Shown here: piece after piece, positions 7,297-45,126 of the stretch
Numbering within the stretch: the first letter of the stretch is position 1
Layout of the letters: each line of letters opens with the position of its first letter
Sequence record: MZ956761.1
Reading direction: 5' to 3' (one strand)
From: a phage
Length of the DNA stretch: 64,000 bases
Program-made: the position numbers and the translations under genes
Notes under the pieces: generated by a model
What the model saw: only the letters and a program-made list of their open reading frames with translations
What the model was told of the DNA's origin: nothing
Databases searched by the model: none

Positions 7297-8981
7297 AGAA
7301 TTTTAAACTAAACCGAGTTAGGTATCAAAATATAATGTCAGTAGGTGGAAATCCTATTGACATTCAACTAGATAAGGTTCAAAAAACTCTTATTACTGGA
7401 CGAAATGGCGGTGGTAAGTCTACTATGTTAGAAGCCATCACATTTGGGCTTTTTGGCAAGCCATTTCGTGATGTAAAGAAAGGTCAATTAATAAACAGCA
7501 CAAATAAGAAAGAACTTTTAGTTGAACTGTGGATGGAATATGATGAGAAAAAGTACTATATCAAAAGAGGACAAAAACCAAACGTTTTCGAAATCACCGT
7601 TAACGGTACACGTCTTAATGAATCTGCCAGCAGTAAAGATTTCCAAGCAGAATTTGAACAGCTTATCGGAATGTCATATGCCAGTTTCAAGCAGATTGTT
7701 GTCCTTGGTACAGCAGGGTATACCCCTTTCATGGGTTTGTCGACCCCTGCACGAAGAAAGCTTGTGGAAGACCTGCTCGAGGTAGGAACATTAGCTGAAA
7801 TGGATAAGCTTAATAAAGCACTAATACGTGAATTAAATTCACAAAACCAAGTGCTTGATGTTAAAAAAGATAGTATTATCCAACAAATTAAAATATATAA
7901 TGATAACGTTGAACGCCAGAAAAAATTAACTGGTGATAACCTTACTCGTCTACAGAATATGTATGATGATTTGGCAAAAGAAGCTAGAACGTTAAAATCG
8001 GAAATAGAAGAAGCTAATGAAAGATTAGTTAATATTGTTTTGGATGAAGACCCGACTGATGCATTTAATAAAATCGGTCAAGAAGCATTTTTAATTAAAT
8101 CAAAAATTGACTCGTATAATAAAGTCATTAATATGTATCACGAAGGTGGATTATGTCCAACCTGTTTGTCACAATTAAGTTCCGGTGATAAAGTTGTTTC
8201 TAAAATTAAAGATAAAGTTTCTGAATGCACGCATTCGTTTGAACAGCTTTCAACNCNNCNNGNNNNNNNNNNAGTATNTCGTTNNTNANTNNNGNGATNN
8301 TNNNAANNNCNANNNGTNNGTTGCTTGCNNNTNNTNTGTNNCNNTNNAAANCANTNNNTNNNCACGACTGTAGATAAAGCTAAAANAGTTAAAGCAGCTA
8401 TAGAANAAGCATCATCTGAGTTTATTGNCCATGCTGATNAAATNGCNCTGCTTNAAGANGAACTTGATAAAATTGTTAAGNCAAANACTAATTTNNTAAT
8501 GGAAAAATNCCACNGAGGAATTTTGACTGATATGCTCAAAGATTCTGGTATTAANGGTGCTATTATTAAAAAGTACATTCCATTATTTAATAAGCAGATT
8601 AACCATTATCTTAAAATAATGGAAGCGGATTATGTGTTTACATTAGATGAAGAATTTAATGAGACAATTAAATCCCGTGGTCGTGAAGATTTTAGTTATG
8701 CTTCATTCAGTCAAGGCGAAAAAGCACGAATTGATATTGCTCTTCTATTTACTTGGCGTGATATTGCTGAAAAAGTTTCAGGTGTTAAAATAAACACACT
8801 AATTCTCGATGAAGTTTTTGATTCAGCAACTGATGTTGAAGGTGTAAAAGCTATTTCAACTATTTTAGATAGTTTAAAAAATACTAATGTTTTTGTTATT
8901 TCACATAGAGACCACGACCCGCAAGCATATGGTCAGCATCTTCAAATGAAGAAAGTTGGTCGATTTACTGTAATGGTTTAA
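7293..8981 (+). CDS. 46: recombination endonuclease subunit gp46 (Rad50-like ATPase); internal tract of ambiguous bases
   Basis: 562 codons, GTG start; Walker A GRNGGGKST; N-containing tract 8255-8540 gives X residues but frame stays open. Confidence 0.9.
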   Translation: MKNFKLNRVRYQNIMSVGGNPIDIQLDKVQKTLITGRNGGGKSTMLEAITFGLFGKPFRDVKKGQLINSTNKKELLVELWMEYDEKKYYIKRGQKPNVFEITVNGTRLNESASSKDFQAEFEQLIGMSYASFKQIVVLGTAGYTPFMGLSTPARRKLVEDLLEVGTLAEMDKLNKALIRELNSQNQVLDVKKDSIIQQIKIYNDNVERQKKLTGDNLTRLQNMYDDLAKEARTLKSEIEEANERLVNIVLDEDPTDAFNKIGQEAFLIKSKIDSYNKVINMYHEGGLCPTCLSQLSSGDKVVSKIKDKVSECTHSFEQLSXXXXXXXVXRXXXXXXXXXXXXXCLXXXCXXXXXXXXTTVDKAKXVKAAIEXASSEFIXHADXXXLLXXELDKIVKXXTNXXMEKXHXGILTDMLKDSGIXGAIIKKYIPLFNKQINHYLKIMEADYVFTLDEEFNETIKSRGREDFSYASFSQGEKARIDIALLFTWRDIAEKVSGVKINTLILDEVFDSATDVEGVKAISTILDSLKNTNVFVISHRDHDPQAYGQHLQMKKVGRFTVMV

Positions 8982-15423: not shown

Positions 15424-15457
15424 ACTGTTTACAAGACTGTTCTTCCATGGTACTATA
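15424..15457 (+). promoter_or_regulatory. T4 early promoter
   Basis: GTTTACA -35, 17-nt spacer, TGgTACTAT -10. Confidence 0.7.
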
Positions 15458-15493
15458 CAACTATCAACTAATACGGATTTGGAGAATAAAATG
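15448..15493 (+). repeat. 46-nt promoter/leader repeat, identical to 42647-42692
   Basis: TGGTACTATACAACTATCAACTAATACGGATTTGGAGAATAAAATG, exact second copy elsewhere. Confidence 0.9.
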
Positions 15494-21143: not shown

Positions 21144-21173
21144 TTTACAAGCCGACAAGACTATGGTATAGTA
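21140..21173 (+). promoter_or_regulatory. T4 early promoter with flanking inverted repeat
   Basis: GTTTACA -35, TGgTATAGT -10; CAAGACT/AGTCTTG inverted repeat around -10. Confidence 0.7.
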
Positions 21174-21201
21174 GTCTTGTTGGTTAAATGAGGAGATTGT
21201 T

Positions 21202-21643: not shown

Positions 21644-21676
21644 CTGTTTACAAGCTGATAGAGTTGTGTTATAGTA
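21643..21676 (+). promoter_or_regulatory. T4 early promoter with inverted repeat
   Basis: GTTTACA -35, TGtTATAGT -10; GCTGATAGA/TCTATCAGC inverted repeat spans -10. Confidence 0.7.
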
Positions 21677-21706
21677 ATTCTATCAGCTAATCGCGGAGAA
21701 AAGAAA

Positions 21707-25161: not shown

Positions 25162-25367
25162 AATTTGATTTTTATGCATGGCAAAAAGCCGGGCGACCGG
25201 CTAGTCGAGCATTTGGTTCTGATGGATATAATATTAGAGCCCATTGGAAGTTTAATGCTCCAGCCGATTATTCTCCGGTAATTATTAACGGTGATGTTGT
25301 TATATTAACTAAAATTGGGTATTTTAACGTTCCGCAAGAATTTATTATAAATAGTCATGTAATTTAA
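25158..25367 (+). CDS. hypothetical protein
   Basis: 69 aa, ATGA overlap. Confidence 0.45.
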   Translation: MKFDFYAWQKAGRPASRAFGSDGYNIRAHWKFNAPADYSPVIINGDVVILTKIGYFNVPQEFIINSHVI

Positions 25368-25383
25368 ATAAAAGGAGAATTAC

Positions 25384-25629
25384 ATGGCTAGTACTCGCGG
25401 TTATGTTAATATTAAAACATTTGAGCAAAAATTAGATGGAAATAAGAAAATTGAAGGAAAGGAAATTTCTGTAGCTTTCCCTCTTTATTCTGACGTTCAC
25501 AAAATTTCTGGTGCTCATTACCAGACATTCCCTTCAGAAAAAGCAGCATATTCTACAGTATATGAAGAAAATCAACGTGATGCATGGATTACTGCAAACG
25601 AAGATTTGTGGAAAGTAACTGGTGAATAA
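25384..25629 (+). CDS. soc: small outer capsid protein Soc
   Basis: 81 aa; matches recalled T4 Soc (MASTRGYVNIKTFEQKLDG...). Confidence 0.93.
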   Translation: MASTRGYVNIKTFEQKLDGNKKIEGKEISVAFPLYSDVHKISGAHYQTFPSEKAAYSTVYEENQRDAWITANEDLWKVTGE

Positions 25630-27765: not shown

Positions 27766-27799
27766 GTTGTTTACTTTCCTTCCTAACAATGATATGATA
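27766..27799 (+). promoter_or_regulatory. T4 early promoter
   Basis: GTTTACT -35, 17-nt spacer, TATGAT -10. Confidence 0.6.
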
Positions 27800-27824
27800 G
27801 CTTCTGAAGTATACGGAGGCTATC

Positions 27825-28448
27825 ATGATTATTAATCTTGCAGATGTTGAACAGTTATCTATAAAAGCTGAAAGCGTCGATTTTCAATATGATATGTATA
27901 AAAAGGTCTGTGAAAAATTTACTGACTTTGAACAGTCAGTTCTTTGGCAATGTATGGAAGCCAAAAAGAATGAAGCTCTTCATCAGCAGTTGAATAAAAT
28001 CGTTAAAAAGCATTTAACTAAATCACCTTATCAGCTATATCGTGGTATATCAAAATCGACAAAAGAACTCATTAAAGATTTACAAGTCGGAGAAGTGTTT
28101 TCAACGAACAGAGTAGATTCATTTACTACTAGTTTGCATACAGCGTGTTCTTTTTCTTATGCCGAATATTTCACTGACACAATACTTCGCTTAAAAACTG
28201 ATAAAGCTTTTAATTACTCTGACCATATCAGCGATATTATACTTTCTTCTCCTAATACTGAGTTTAAGTATACATATGAAGATACTGATGGATTAGATTC
28301 AGAACGTACTGATAACTTAATGATGATTGTACGTGAACAAGAATGGATGATTCCAATTGGAAAGTATAAAATAACTTTTATTTCAAAAGAAAAATTACAC
28401 GATTCGTTTGGAACATTTAAAGTGTATGATATTGAGGTAGTTGAATGA
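27825..28448 (+). CDS. modB: ADP-ribosyltransferase ModB
   Basis: 207 aa; size and position as T4 ModB. Confidence 0.7.
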   Translation: MIINLADVEQLSIKAESVDFQYDMYKKVCEKFTDFEQSVLWQCMEAKKNEALHQQLNKIVKKHLTKSPYQLYRGISKSTKELIKDLQVGEVFSTNRVDSFTTSLHTACSFSYAEYFTDTILRLKTDKAFNYSDHISDIILSSPNTEFKYTYEDTDGLDSERTDNLMMIVREQEWMIPIGKYKITFISKEKLHDSFGTFKVYDIEVVE

Positions 28449-32959: not shown

Positions 32960-32993
32960 GTTGTTTACTTCCTCGGTTAGTTGTGGTATTATA
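32960..32993 (+). promoter_or_regulatory. T4 early promoter
   Basis: GTTTACT -35, 17-nt spacer, TGgTATTAT. Confidence 0.7.
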
Positions 32994-33019
32994 ACACCAT
33001 AGCTACTGAGGATAATAAA

Positions 33020-33523
33020 ATGAAAATTTATCGTGTTGAATCATCGTTTAGTATTCTTAATTGTGAAGATGCTATAACAATACGTCGAAATCTTTGTGTT
33101 CAAATAACGCCATACAGGAGTATAATAGATTCATGGAGCGAAGAGTGGTTATTACACGTAGGTTATGATAGACCTAATTTTATGCATCATAGTAATGATA
33201 ACAAAAGAATTCCTCTTCCGCGCGAAGACAAATTATTAGTTAAAAATGCTAATATAGCAATTAATACTAACTTTGAGAAAGAAGAATATGTAGGCGTAGA
33301 TCATTATATTCCCGGATGGTTTATAGCTATTTATCATTTTGCTTTCGCTAGTGAATATGATATGATGAGATGGTTCACACGAGAAGAGCGTGAAGAATTA
33401 TCTTCTAAAGGATTTTATCTTGCTGTATACGAAGTGCCAGATGACCAAGTTATCATTGGCGGACACCAAGTAATGTTCCGCAAATCGCATGCTGAACTCG
33501 TAGATTTTATTGAAATGAGATAA
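33020..33523 (+). CDS. hypothetical protein
   Basis: 167 aa from ATG 33020 after GAGGATAA. Confidence 0.5.
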   Translation: MKIYRVESSFSILNCEDAITIRRNLCVQITPYRSIIDSWSEEWLLHVGYDRPNFMHHSNDNKRIPLPREDKLLVKNANIAINTNFEKEEYVGVDHYIPGWFIAIYHFAFASEYDMMRWFTREEREELSSKGFYLAVYEVPDDQVIIGGHQVMFRKSHAELVDFIEMR

Positions 33524-34663: not shown

Positions 34664-34708
34664 TATACATCAGTAGTTGATTATGGTACTATATCAATAT
34701 CAACTACT
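34664..34708 (+). promoter_or_regulatory. early-promoter-like element with stem-loop (diverged copy of the repeat family)
   Basis: TGGTACTAT -10 enclosed by 10-bp inverted repeat AGTAGTTGAT/ATCAACTACT; weak -35. Confidence 0.45.
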
Positions 34709-34735
34709 GATACAGAAAATAACTTGGAGAATAAA

Positions 34736-40822: not shown

Positions 40823-41761
40823 ATGTACAATATTAAATGCCTGACCAAAAACGAACAAGCTGAAATTGTTAAACTGTATTCAAGTGGTAATTACACCCAA
40901 CAGGAATTGGCTTATTGGAAGGATGTATCGGTTGATACAATCCGTCGTGTTTTGAAAAATGCTGAAGAAGCTAAACGCCCTAAAGTTACTATTAGCGGTG
41001 ATATTACAGTTAAAGTTAATAGCGATGCAGTTATTGCTCCAGTTGCTAAATCTGACATTATTTGGAATGCATCTAAAAAATTCATTTCAATTACTGTTGA
41101 CGGTGTAACTTATAACGCAACTCCTAATACTCATTCAAACTTCCAGGAAATTCTTAATCTGCTTGTAGCAGATAAGTTGGAAGAAGCGGCACAAAAAATT
41201 AATGTTCGTCGCGCTGTTGAAAAATATATTTCCGGCGATGTTCGAATTGAAGGCGGAAGCTTGTTCTATCAAAATATCGAATTACGGTCTGGTTTAGTTG
41301 ATCGTATTCTCGATTCGATGGAAAAAGGTGAAAACTTTGAATTTTATTTTCCGTTCTTGGAAAATCTGCTGGAAAACCCAAGCCAGAAAGCGGTATCTCG
41401 ACTCTTTGATTTCTTGGTAGCAAACGATATTGAAATTACAGAAGATGGTTACTTCTATGCTTGGAAAGTAGTTCGTGACAACTACTTTGACTGTCACTCA
41501 AACACCTTTGATAACAGTCCTGGTAAAGTAGTTAAAATGCCGCGTACTCGTGTGAATGACGATGATACACAAACTTGTTCTCGTGGTCTGCATGTGTGTT
41601 CTAAATCTTATATTCGTCACTTTGGCAGTTCAACCAGCCGAGTTGTAAAAGTTAAAGTACATCCACGTGATGTAGTATCAATTCCGATTGATTACAACGA
41701 TGCTAAAATGCGTACCTGCCAATACGAAGTAGTTGAAGACGTTACTGAACAATTTAAATAA
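40823..41761 (+). CDS. rIIB: rIIB protein
   Basis: 312 aa immediately downstream of rIIA. Confidence 0.9.
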   Translation: MYNIKCLTKNEQAEIVKLYSSGNYTQQELAYWKDVSVDTIRRVLKNAEEAKRPKVTISGDITVKVNSDAVIAPVAKSDIIWNASKKFISITVDGVTYNATPNTHSNFQEILNLLVADKLEEAAQKINVRRAVEKYISGDVRIEGGSLFYQNIELRSGLVDRILDSMEKGENFEFYFPFLENLLENPSQKAVSRLFDFLVANDIEITEDGYFYAWKVVRDNYFDCHSNTFDNSPGKVVKMPRTRVNDDDTQTCSRGLHVCSKSYIRHFGSSTSRVVKVKVHPRDVVSIPIDYNDAKMRTCQYEVVEDVTEQFK

Positions 41762-41991: not shown

Positions 41992-42015
41992 AAGGGCTTC
42001 GGCCCTTTTGTTTTA
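41992..42015 (+). terminator. rho-independent terminator
   Basis: AAGGGC-TTCG-GCCCTT hairpin + TTGTTTT. Confidence 0.75.
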
Positions 42016-42051
42016 AGAGAAATTATGATTCCGACATAAAGGAAAGTTTAA

Positions 42052-42609
42052 ATGCAGAAAACGAATCCGGGTTTGCAGAGACTATTTCAGATTCCGTCAT
42101 TTACCCTATCGAACAGTGACTTGACTAGTGAAATGAAGGCCAAAATTGCTGATACTGCAAGATATTCTTTAAAGCAAAATCCAAATCAGGATAAGGCAGA
42201 AGTTATCGAAAGATGCCGTATCGCTGTGTACGCAGAGTTTTTTGTGGCAGATTGGCTGAGCGGATATGTCAATAAAGGCCAAGAAGATGTCGATGATCCG
42301 TACACATATGCATGGGATGTTTTAGCACATCCAAAATACTGCGGGCTTCGTGTAGAAGTTAAGACACATCAAACTGACTCACGTTGGATTTCGGTGACAA
42401 CAGGATGCAGCGGAGAGTATCCATATGGTTCTGGAATAAATCTAGGGCCCATTCTAAATCATCAAGTCGCTGACTGTATAATTATATTCAACACTAAAGA
42501 AATTCATCCAGGTGTCATCCAGTACACTCCGAAGTTCATCGGTGACAGAGAAGACCTTCGTAAAGTTGTAAGAAAAAGCAACTACAACGGATGGTATCTT
42601 TCCATTTAA
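42052..42609 (+). CDS. denB: endonuclease IV DenB
   Basis: 185 aa; size and position downstream of rIIB as in T4. Confidence 0.75.
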   Translation: MQKTNPGLQRLFQIPSFTLSNSDLTSEMKAKIADTARYSLKQNPNQDKAEVIERCRIAVYAEFFVADWLSGYVNKGQEDVDDPYTYAWDVLAHPKYCGLRVEVKTHQTDSRWISVTTGCSGEYPYGSGINLGPILNHQVADCIIIFNTKEIHPGVIQYTPKFIGDREDLRKVVRKSNYNGWYLSI

Positions 42610-42622
42610 AAAATTTCACAAA

Positions 42623-42656
42623 ATGGTTTACATACCACAAGGACCGTGGTACTATA
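42623..42656 (+). promoter_or_regulatory. T4 early promoter
   Basis: GTTTACA -35, 17-nt spacer, TGgTACTAT. Confidence 0.7.
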
Positions 42657-42692
42657 CAACTATCAACTAATACGGATTTGGAGAATAAAATG
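42647..42692 (+). repeat. 46-nt promoter/leader repeat, identical to 15448-15493
   Basis: exact 46-nt identity including -10, leader, SD and ATG. Confidence 0.9.
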
Positions 42693-42896
42693 TTTACTAC
42701 AGCTGAATTAAAACGAGCAAAAGCTAAGAAAGGGCAAGGGAAATATAAAGCTGAACTAGTTAAAGAACTTCAATTTGCTGAGGCTGAGTTGAATTCGATG
42801 ATTATTCAAAATGCTCCAGAAACTGAAATTGCTCTTAAACGTATTGCGAATAAGTGTCTTCGTGATGCAATCGTTGATCTTTTAGCGGATTATTGA
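42690..42896 (+). CDS. hypothetical protein
   Basis: 68 aa from ATG after GGAGAATAAA. Confidence 0.5.
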   Translation: MFTTAELKRAKAKKGQGKYKAELVKELQFAEAELNSMIIQNAPETEIALKRIANKCLRDAIVDLLADY

Positions 42897-42901
42897 GTAA
42901 A

Positions 42902-43165
42902 ATGAAATTTAAATTTTATTATGCTAAGCATAAAATAACTGATGAGTTTGTGTCAGTTGAATATTCTAGCGATGATGAAGGTATGATTTATACTCGCTTA
43001 GGATTATCGCATTGGGAGTCTGATCAGCCTTATTTTTCAACTCCTGAAGAAATTACACGCTTAGTTAATGGTCATATGAATGATCACTGGAATGTAATTC
43101 TTTCAGATAGTCTTAAAGCGGCTATTAATAGTAATGAAATGAAAATCGCTGAGATTGAACTATGA
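42902..43165 (+). CDS. hypothetical protein
   Basis: 87 aa from ATG 42902. Confidence 0.45.
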   Translation: MKFKFYYAKHKITDEFVSVEYSSDDEGMIYTRLGLSHWESDQPYFSTPEEITRLVNGHMNDHWNVILSDSLKAAINSNEMKIAEIEL

Positions 43166-43347
43166 GTTCATTATGGTGGTGTTTTGTTTGGTTAATTAGT
43201 ATTCCATTAATTTGTTTAACATTTACTTTTGTAATGAGGTTATTATGAAAATTTTGAATTCTGTGCTTATTGCTTGTGCGTGGTGGGTTGCGCAAGTTTC
43301 AGCGGTAGTAGTTGGTATTCACATTTATTACGAATATTTTTAAAAAA

Positions 43348-43381
43348 GTTGTTTACAAGACTGTTCCTCTGTGGTATTATT
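43348..43381 (+). promoter_or_regulatory. T4 early promoter (member of the repeat family)
   Basis: GTTTACAAGACTGTTC as at 15427; TGgTATTAT -10; 9-bp inverted repeat CTGTTCCTC/GAGGAACAG bridges the promoter and the SD. Confidence 0.7.
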
Positions 43382-43408
43382 ACCCTATCAACTACGGAGG
43401 AACAGAAA

Positions 43409-43522
43409 ATGAAAAAGATTGTTAAAGCTATATGGAATGTAGTTATAATACTAGTAGTTTTGAGTATATTCCCAATCGTTTTAATGATTGATGTATTAAA
43501 CGCTTACTTTGGATTTATGTGA
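43409..43522 (+). CDS. hypothetical small membrane peptide (37 aa)
   Basis: ATG after GGAGGAACAG; hydrophobic. Confidence 0.35.
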   Translation: MKKIVKAIWNVVIILVVLSIFPIVLMIDVLNAYFGFM

Positions 43523-43529
43523 GGAAAAT

Positions 43530-43727
43530 ATGAAGCGTAAACGCGGTGCTTTTACATTTATTGAATGGTTTTTCGATAATATTTTTCCAGCTTTATTCAT
43601 TTTCATGCTGATTTTCGCCTTAGGTTCAGTTGTAGTTGGAATCTATTTGATGGCAGTTGTCGGAATGGACATTCATCAAAATGGCTTAAAATCTGTAGTT
43701 GAAACAATTTGGAATGGTGTAAAATGA
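43530..43727 (+). CDS. hypothetical small membrane protein
   Basis: 65 aa from ATG after GAGGAAAAT; two hydrophobic segments. Confidence 0.45.
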   Translation: MKRKRGAFTFIEWFFDNIFPALFIFMLIFALGSVVVGIYLMAVVGMDIHQNGLKSVVETIWNGVK

Positions 43728-43842
43728 TGAATTTGCTGAGTGGTTGGTTTTATATTCTCATGTTTTACATTGGTGCAAATTTCCCATATTGGATGGGATG
43801 GTCAACAACTGCATTCGGATTTTATACTCCTTGAGGTGAATT

Positions 43843-44058
43843 ATGAAAATCTTTAAAGATGTAAAAGTTGGTGAAATTTTCTGTTTAGATAACGGTGATC
43901 AGTTAATTCGTATTTCACCTCTTAAGAGCACTAGCGAGAAACCGACAGTTAATGCTACTTTAGCAAATAACAGTAATGAACGTTTCTGTATTGAAAATGA
44001 TACTGAAACTTATACCGTAGAAGAGTTTTGGAAATTGAGCGTCGACTGCGACGATTAA
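43843..44058 (+). CDS. hypothetical protein
   Basis: 71 aa, ATG after GAGGTGAATT. Confidence 0.5.
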   Translation: MKIFKDVKVGEIFCLDNGDQLIRISPLKSTSEKPTVNATLANNSNERFCIENDTETYTVEEFWKLSVDCDD

Positions 44059-44118
44059 TTTATCGGCCGTGTGTATTCATGCGGCCTTGGAGTAGAAAAT
44101 AATTTAGAGGAAATTAAT

Positions 44119-44577
44119 ATGAAATATATGACTGTTACTGATCTGAATGATGCAGGTGCTACTGTTATTGGTACAATCAAGGGTGGTGAGTGGTTTTTGG
44201 GAACTCCGCACAAAGACATTTTGTCTAAACCTGGATTTTACTTTTTAGTAAGTAAATTAGATGGTCGTCCATTTAGTAATCCATGTGTGTCTGCACGATT
44301 TTATGTAGGTAATCAGCGTTCTAAGCAAGGATTCAGTGCAGTTCTAAGTCATATTCGTCAACGTCGGTCTCAGCTTGCACGTACTATTGCAAATAACAAT
44401 ATGGTATACACGGTGTTTTATCTGCCTGCTTCTAAGATGAAACCTCTGACGACGGGATTTGGAAAAGGTCAGTTAGCTTTGGCGTTTACTCGTAATCATC
44501 ATTCTGAGTATCAAACACTTGAAGAAATGAACCGTATGTTGGCTGATAACTTTAAATTTGTTTTGCAGGCATATTAA
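44119..44577 (+). CDS. ndd: nucleoid disruption protein Ndd
   Basis: 152 aa from ATG 44119; matches recalled T4 Ndd ([10 protein letters not shown]...). Confidence 0.88.
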
Positions 44578-44830: not shown

Positions 44831-44989
44831 ATGAATATCGCAAAATTATTAGGAGTTATTTCATTTATTTGTTGGATAGTAGCATGTGTTTTAACTATCT
44901 GTATCGATGCTAGCAGTGTGTTTTCACAAGCTTTAGCNCAGGGTATGTGTNNATATTTNANNTTTGTGTTGTTATCTNCTAATGNTTAA
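44831..44989 (+). CDS. hypothetical small membrane protein (3' end in ambiguous-base tract)
   Basis: ATG after GGAGAATATT; hydrophobic; stop uncertain because of Ns. Confidence 0.35.
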   Translation: MNIAKLLGVISFICWIVACVLTICIDASSVFSQALXQGMCXYXXFVLLSXNX

Positions 44990-45126
44990 GAAAATCTTNG
45001 GCTANTCANTANCCCNTGCTACTTTANTGGTAGCACTANANTANGGAGTAANGNTCNGANTAANTCAAGTCGTGCNTTTCATTTCNGANGTTATTATGGC
45101 ACTACATTCACTAGTATGGTAAATTT

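Follow-up and report, generated by a model that had tools for sequence, protein, structure and literature searches.

A hairpin joining an early-promoter spacer to the Shine-Dalgarno sequence of ndd.4: a candidate translational gate keyed to promoter of origin in T4-like phages

Translational masks that depend on where a transcript starts are known from phage T4. In the genes soc, e, 49 and I-TevI, a hairpin hides the Shine-Dalgarno sequence (SD) and/or the AUG in transcripts started upstream, while the promoters belonging to these masks give transcripts that start between the two arms and lack the 5′ arm (PMC3014915). For gene e, the mask results in roughly 100-fold repression (review PMC3014915). 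The title of a report on mobE of phage Aeh1 also names a hairpin that sequesters the ribosome binding site (RBS), and as far as that title goes the element is alike (Gibb & Edgell 2009, cited in PMC3014915).

Early genes of T4-like phages are associated with another type of hairpin. In the promoter-early stem-loop (PeSL), a strong early promoter of sigma-70-like type, preceded by an AT-rich region, is combined with a stem-loop, an SD and a start codon (PMC2839356). PeSL cassettes are repeated in hyperplastic regions and are implicated in gene shuffling (Arbiol et al. 2010, PMC2839356; Comeau et al. 2014). The described stem-loops lie 5′ of the -35 box, between the boxes, over the -35 or -10 box, or immediately 5′ of the start site (PMC2839356). 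They have been read as terminators/attenuators and as recombination sites (Arbiol et al. 2010, PMC2839356; Comeau et al. 2014), and one of them cut read-through into lacZ about as much as rrnB T1 did (Arbiol et al. 2010, PMC2839356). Pairing with the SD is not mentioned in Arbiol 2010 or Comeau 2014 (the string 'sequest' has 0 occurrences). Moreover, early promoters are off within minutes (review PMC3014915), and the endonuclease RegB cuts GGAG in early SDs, with the strong-site consensus GG*AGRAYARAA, unless secondary structure blocks the cut (PMC3014915).

Here we discuss a hairpin in front of ndd.4 in Escherichia phage ADUt, a T4-like Tequatrovirus (MZ956761.1; the 64,000 nucleotides analyzed are referred to as the window). 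As in the masks of T4 e, soc, 49 and I-TevI, the helix holds the SD, and RNAs from a predicted internal promoter would begin between the arms. In those masks, however, the internal promoter is late (gp55) and delays translation, whereas that of ndd.4 is of the early sigma-70 type (GTTTAC, 17 nt, TGnTATTAT). Furthermore, the anti-SD strand at ndd.4 is the promoter's own spacer, and translation would be restricted to an immediate-early pulse rather than postponed. The temporal logic is thus unlike that of the textbook cases. A sequence-only reading had proposed a T4-style promoter-dependent switch at this site; folding, statistics and covariation bear out the mask architecture, while the late-promoter feature of the T4 cases is replaced by a promoter of early type. 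Collectively, the data support a model in which the ndd.4 mask is an early-promoter form of the known T4 masks, set within a PeSL-type cassette, where pairing of the SD is undescribed. The site also resembles the early SDs targeted by RegB in that GGAG is followed by an A-rich tract (GGAGGAACAGAA) and structure would be protective (PMC3014915), but a fit to the strong-site consensus requires the insertion of one nucleotide. The searchable literature yielded no report of a mask at any of ndd.4, modB and motB.2, although older T4 papers might contain one, and neither a mapping of T4 start sites at ndd.4 nor an experimental record of read-through RNA, ndd.4 translation or RegB cleavage at this gene; the T4 GenBank records carry only CDS features at ndd.4.

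Promoter and hairpin between ndd.5 and ndd.4

The plus strand of the window is equivalent to the minus strand of T4. Listed below are the genes of the neighborhood in their order and the elements of the ndd.4 leader.

40823-41761: rIIB, the start of the local gene order
Between rIIB and denB: denB.1
42052-42609: denB, after denB.1
42627-42655, plus strand: upstream T4-type early promoter (TTTACA, 17 nt, TACTAT; promoter scan)
After denB and before the ndd.6/ndd.5 homologs: two ORFs without a T4 counterpart
43245-43343, plus strand: ndd.5 homolog, 32 aa (phrog_5011, E = 3.6e-26; named ndd.5 in T4)
43332-43350, plus strand: A/T-rich upstream element of the early promoter (AATATTTTTAAAAAAGTTG; from the sequence)
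43352-43357, plus strand: -35 hexamer TTTACA (T4 early consensus GTTTAC; promoter scan and SA21RB annotation)
43361-43375, plus strand: 5′ arm (CUGUUCCUCUGUGGU), the anti-SD strand in the promoter spacer; it overlaps the -10 hexamer by one base, the first T
43375-43380, plus strand: -10 hexamer TATTAT, with a TG extension at 43372-43373 (promoter scan)
43376-43390, plus strand: 15-nt loop with most of the -10 box and the predicted start (fold)
43391-43405, plus strand: 3′ arm (ACUACGGAGGAACAG) with the complete SD GGAGG at 43396-43400 (fold)
43409-43522, plus strand: ndd.4 homolog, 37 aa, hydrophobic (phrog_3098, E = 3e-21)
Order onward: ndd.6/ndd.5 homologs, ndd.4, ndd.3/2a, ndd.2, ndd.1, ndd, ac, gene 52

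No Pfam family matched the ndd.4 homolog; the annotation ndd.4 is carried by T4, RB51, T2, JS10 and SP18. It is this gene whose translation, in the model supported here, would be gated.

T4 and ADUt diverge in the region from denB to ndd. At 42693-43165, between denB and ndd.6, ADUt has two ORFs (about 68 and 90 aa) that are missing from T4; after the common promoter, T4 has just a short MKIAEIEL ORF, and its similarity to ADUt resumes at ~43133. This difference, an indel beside a promoter cassette, is in line with what the PeSL model predicts. Another difference concerns annotation. The annotated ndd.4 start in T4 (NC_000866) is an ATG at T4 position 166764 that arises from a C-to-T change within the 3′ arm (CTATGGAGG), while the start in all relatives is the ATG 15 nt downstream, with a GGAGG SD; the T4 annotation probably contains five spurious residues at its start. 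In addition, 98 scattered N bases occur in coding sequence of the window, at 8255-8555 and at 44938-45089, the latter in the ac / 52.1 region just 5′ of gene 52. The runs are mostly 1-3 nt long (one is 10) and represent masked or ambiguous bases.

The promoter in front of ndd.4 scores 10/12 as an early promoter, with 17 nt between TTTACA and TATTAT, and fits TTTACW-N17-TAYWAT, the consensus given for the T4/PST pair. A T4 early promoter is annotated at the corresponding site in SA21RB, a 99.6%-identical relative, and inspection of the sequence within 43340-43410 revealed no late promoter (TATAAATA). On the basis of standard sigma-70 geometry, transcription is predicted to start at an A at ~43387, 7 nt past the -10 box. 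The sequence-only reading had placed an early promoter with its -10 box between the arms of a 9-bp inverted repeat that overlaps the SD of the ORF starting at 43409, and these elements are all present: CTGTTCCTC (43361-43369) and GAGGAACAG (43397-43405) are exact reverse complements, and both the GGAGG and the ATG at 43409 lie where expected. Only the extent of the repeat was understated. The arms are 87% complementary as DNA over 15 positions (43361-43375 and 43391-43405), and as RNA 15 of 15 positions pair, two of them as G·U, to close the 15-nt loop. The stem ends 4 nt short of the AUG, and the GGAGG in its 3′ arm includes GGAG, the RegB-type motif. Since the 5′ arm stops on the first base of the -10 box, no transcript of the ndd.4 promoter has it, as had also been anticipated.

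A 71-nt RNA folds into exactly this 15-bp hairpin, with a minimum free energy (MFE) of -23.2 kcal/mol (z = -4.87) that none of 200 shuffles reached, and all five SD bases are paired in both the MFE and the centroid structure. Inverted repeats of 9 nt (gap 3-40 nt) number 53 in the window vs 20.5 +/- 5.9 in dinucleotide shuffles; the bare 9-nt repeat is within chance, while the full stem is beyond it. Contiguous stems of at least 15 bp have an expectation of ~1.2 per strand, and among all stems of at least 11 bp on both strands of the 64 kb (66 on the plus strand vs about 40 expected from shuffles, and 38 on the minus strand) that of ndd.4 is the most stable (bare hairpin, -22.1). The sole Rfam match within 42500-44500 was potC, whose score of 20.5 bits (E = 0.76) is below the family's gathering score of 44, and it was rejected as a chance match.

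Folding of long and short transcripts agrees with the proposal that read-through RNA occludes the SD. Unpairing of GGAGG costs 12.7-16.4 kcal/mol in RNAs starting at 43358, 43246, 43100 or 43000, in each of which the hairpin is the MFE structure, vs 0.8 kcal/mol in RNA starting at 43386-43388. Likewise, opening of the RBS (-15 to +3) costs 17.3 kcal/mol in the long RNA vs 2.9 in the short RNA. This contrast of ~14 kcal/mol should be strongly repressive for ndd.4. The ndd.5 stop codon (43341-43343) lies 17 nt 5′ of the stem, so a ribosome terminating there should leave the hairpin unmelted.

A likely source of read-through transcripts with both arms is the early promoter at 42627, which is also present in T4, 3′ of denB. 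The terminator scan flagged no terminator-like sites on the plus strand at 42007-44040, and stp, a delayed-early gene according to a review (PMC3014915), lies further downstream on the same strand. The strong upstream promoter, the lack of flagged terminators and the delayed-early gene downstream lead us to expect read-through RNA. This nearest upstream promoter is, however, also early, which makes a purely temporal rationale weaker than in the late-promoter cases.

Conservation of the pairing across genera

T4 and five IMG/VR relatives were compared within Tequatrovirus. Three positions in the stem are polymorphic, and pairing is preserved at each: two have C/U facing a G, and at the third C becomes U, again across from G. 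A single variant disrupts the terminal pair alone. These variants are weak evidence by themselves, because ~57% of random transitions would preserve pairs. The other genera provide strong evidence. In each of them, an early-type promoter precedes the ndd.4 ortholog and its spacer pairs with the SD region. The arms are as follows.

Tequatrovirus (ADUt): 5′ arm CUGUUCCUCUGUGGU, 3′ arm ACUACGGAGGAACAG
Gaprivervirus (VR26, SP18): 5′ arm CAUCUCCGGUGG, 3′ arm CUACUGGAGAUG
Dhakavirus (JS10, IME08, WG01, PSD2002): 5′ arm CAUCUCCAUUAG, 3′ arm CUAAUGGAGAUG
Karamvirus (EnA02, CC31, PG7, AS6, Pet-CM3-4): 5′ arm UUCUCCGUUAG, 3′ arm CUAACGGAGAA

Duplexes between cognate spacers and leaders have energies of -19.2 to -23.8 kcal/mol in these four genera (0 of 2000 shuffles in each case), while non-cognate, cross-genus duplexes range from -3 to -18 kcal/mol. 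Kosakonia phage 305 (Kanagawavirus) forms a weak duplex of -10.5 kcal/mol, which 183 of 2000 shuffles equaled. That four genera keep strong pairing between spacer and SD with different sequences argues for selection on the pairing.

The Tequatrovirus 5′ arm lies ~4 nt farther from the -35 box than that of the other genera and abuts the -10 box. As MAFFT anchors on the promoter boxes, the Tequatrovirus arms fall out of register in the alignment; the covariation count was for this reason limited to the nine sequences from outside Tequatrovirus, and Tequatrovirus was assessed by duplex energies. Among the nine, 91.7% of cells are paired vs 31-50% with the partner slid. Double compensatory changes occur at three pairs (AU/UA, GC/GU/AU and UA/GC), and the covariation score of 0.264 (vs 0.122) is above that of all 500 shuffles. 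The lineages behind the covariation are few (4-5 genera). Complementarity was maintained as the 5′ arm moved. The SD is paired in the long-form MFE fold of 15 of 15 sequences. In Tequatro- and Gaprivervirus, G·U pairs give the sense strand an advantage of ~7 kcal/mol over the antisense strand, and in the remaining genera the sense strand is never much worse. This asymmetry points to a structure in mRNA-sense RNA and not to a cruciform or an antisense element.

Other early promoters, PeSL cassettes and alternative readings

Masking of the SD as a general property of early promoters was considered and rejected, as only 3 of the 17 early promoters in the window show strong pairing between spacer and cognate SD. 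These are at 43352 (ndd.4, -26.0), 32964 (motB.2 homolog, -15.9) and 27770 (modB homolog, -15.3). Each of the three spacers ranks first among the 17 for its own SD; the others resemble non-cognate pairs. Opening of the RBS costs 16.1 kcal/mol in the long vs 2.5 in the short form at modB and 16.1 vs 6.9 at motB.2, while the long-form cost at twelve other early promoters is 2.4-8.7 kcal/mol. These hairpins, the soc mask used as a positive control and three further hairpins are listed below.

27793-27827: hairpin of the modB (ADP-ribosyltransferase) homolog, 14 bp; promoter at 27770
32970-33012: hairpin of the motB.2 homolog (33020-33523), 17 bp; promoter at 32964
25352-25390: soc mask (Soc, PF16855, E = 8.5e-53)
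21150-21185, 21653-21688 and 34669-34711: hairpins of 13-15 bp at early promoters, enclosing or overlapping the -10 box and ending before the SD

At motB.2, as at ndd.4, the 5′ arm lies in the spacer, the -10 box in the loop and the 3′ arm over the SD. The 5′ arm of the modB hairpin comprises the -10 box (TATGAT) and the first transcribed bases, and its 3′ arm covers the SD GGAGG and the AUG. Both hairpins are identical in T4. Matches to modB beyond Tequatrovirus are mostly 30-45% identical, a level at which ModA/ModB orthology is ambiguous. In the soc mask, which is established by experiment, a late-promoter-like sequence (TTTAAATA) lies in the loop and the AUG (25384) in the 3′ arm; its opening cost, 13.9 in the long vs 4.6 in the short form, gives a smaller contrast than that of ndd.4. 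The three remaining hairpins look like PeSL-type stem-loops. They enclose the -10 box and stop short of the SD, indicating that geometry alone does not force involvement of the SD.

The ndd.4 unit shares with PeSLs an AT-rich upstream region, a sigma-70-like promoter, a stable stem-loop, and the SD and start of a small ORF, and like them it lies in a hyperplastic region and is repeated before different ORFs. A 231-nt query across the ndd.4 region gave 2-5 matches per genome in most relatives, and in EC.W1-1 and in IMG/VR contigs the entire promoter-hairpin-SD unit precedes an unrelated 175-aa ORF (phrog_2274). It is unlike PeSLs in that the stem begins in the spacer, spans the -10 box and the start site and reaches as far as the SD, with no U-tract. 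Among the 33 distinct IMG/VR cassettes that have the leader CTATCAACTA in common, a masking contrast of at least 8 kcal/mol is seen in the ndd.4 type only, and nine of the 33 have an intermediate contrast.

Two further sites combine these elements differently. In Klebsiella phage Roth19 (~683-765), an early promoter comes directly after a canonical, GC-rich terminator hairpin (AAAAAGGACCTTCGGGTCCTTT). The spacer of this promoter, UCUUCUGUGGU, and the SD region, ACUACUGGAGA, pair in a weaker version of the ndd.4 mask; the site has the classic PeSL layout plus a weak SD mask. In the window, the spacer of the early promoter at 15428-15493 (AGACTGTTCTTCCATGG) is almost the same as the 5′ arm of T4 ndd.4; the promoter has a -10 box and leader as at 42627 and an SD that is non-complementary (duplex -9.0 kcal/mol). 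This promoter looks like a recombinant of promoter cassettes.

The resemblance to PeSLs raises the possibility that the hairpin acts as an attenuator or insulator, stopping or pausing polymerases that arrive from upstream so that each small early cassette is transcribed from its own promoter, with pairing of the SD being secondary. Such a role has precedent in the early-promoter stem-loops of T4-like phages, including those over the -10 box and the one that reduced lacZ read-through to an extent similar to rrnB T1 (PMC2839356), and PeSLs have been drawn flanking ndd.4/ndd.5 in T4 itself (Comeau et al. 2014). The SA21RB record carries a WebGeSTer 'rho-independent terminator' on the ndd.4 hairpin, and the three window promoters with -10-enclosing hairpins clear of the SD also fit this role. 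On the other hand, a U-tract is missing behind the stem in each of six orthologs, where the 8 nt that come next contain 1-3 U, and the consensus terminator scan left the ndd.4 hairpin unflagged; an intrinsic terminator was rejected on these grounds. Moreover, the 3′ arm of an attenuator need not cover the SD, yet four genera keep the SD paired through changes in sequence and register. We therefore consider attenuation as the main role rather unlikely, while noting that attenuator and translational gate are not mutually exclusive.

It is also conceivable, if decidedly improbable, that the hairpin is an element of RNA processing or stability rather than a gate, protecting the 3′ end of upstream mRNA after endonucleolytic cleavage or serving as an RNase III site or as a shield against RegB. 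The SD is of the kind that RegB cuts and structure protects (PMC3014915), and GGAGGAACAGAA is near the strong-site consensus. Shielding an RNA whose SD is unusable would bring no obvious gain by itself. For RNase III, a stem of 15 bp is short.

Least probable is a feature or by-product at the DNA level (cassette recombination, a protein-binding palindrome or a promoter-modulating cruciform, with the RNA hairpin incidental): the unit before the phrog_2274 ORF in other Tequatroviruses and the 15428 promoter, which joins an ndd.4-like spacer (as in T4) to a leader without a complementary SD, are consistent with cassette shuffling, but the arms diverge among genera while complementarity stays, the opposite of what a protein-binding site would show, the G·U pairs make the structure strand-specific where a cruciform would have C·A mismatches on the other strand, and the shuffles rule out a chance origin, so that a protein-binding palindrome, an antisense-strand structure and a cruciform were all dismissed.

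A candidate translational gate and what it would mean

We consider it probable, with room for doubt, that the hairpin gates translation of ndd.4 according to the promoter from which an RNA originates, with read-through RNA being silent for ndd.4. In this model, the spacer of the early (sigma-70) promoter between ndd.5 and ndd.4 would double as the anti-SD strand. RNAs carrying both arms, from the early promoter at 42627 and from longer delayed-early or middle transcripts, would form the 15-bp hairpin, which buries the ndd.4 SD and keeps 30S subunits off. RNA from the embedded promoter would begin within the loop, without the 5′ arm, and its ribosome site would be open. Translation of ndd.4 would in this way be licensed only for RNAs from its own promoter. 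RegB could plausibly also cut the short RNA at its exposed GGAG, while pairing would protect the GGAG of the long RNA.

On balance, Ndd.4 would be made in a brief immediate-early pulse. If translation is tied to its own promoter, synthesis is confined to the short period in which early promoters are active, independent of genomic context. Because the nearest upstream promoter is also early, control of dosage, or insulation of a mobile cassette from its context, is as plausible a purpose as timing.

A broader version, which we offer tentatively and which may well not hold, is that early cassettes of Tevenvirinae use the spacer of their own promoter, which is free in sequence, as anti-SD, so that only RNA from a cassette's own promoter is translatable and RegB-sensitive and read-through RNA is silent ("promoter-of-origin licensing"). 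If true, licensing would make mobile PeSL cassettes independent of their surroundings in the genome, and potentially harmful proteins at ndd.4, modB and motB.2 in T4 would be limited to the first minutes of infection. It would represent a general, so far undescribed layer of immediate-early vs delayed-early control.

T4 serves as the reference for temporal control of gene expression, and its known masks with a promoter in the hairpin all delay translation to late infection. If the ndd.4 hairpin is functional, the same device also works in reverse, giving translation in an immediate-early pulse and silencing delayed-early/middle read-through. In T4, at least three loci have the architecture of such an early-promoter mask, among them modB, which encodes an ADP-ribosyltransferase. 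Should the gate be real, the stem-loops of PeSLs would gain a translational function besides their proposed roles in attenuation and recombination. The abundance of masked genes in RNA-seq data would then overstate their translation, and annotation and engineering of small early genes would have to consider the promoter from which each transcript originates.
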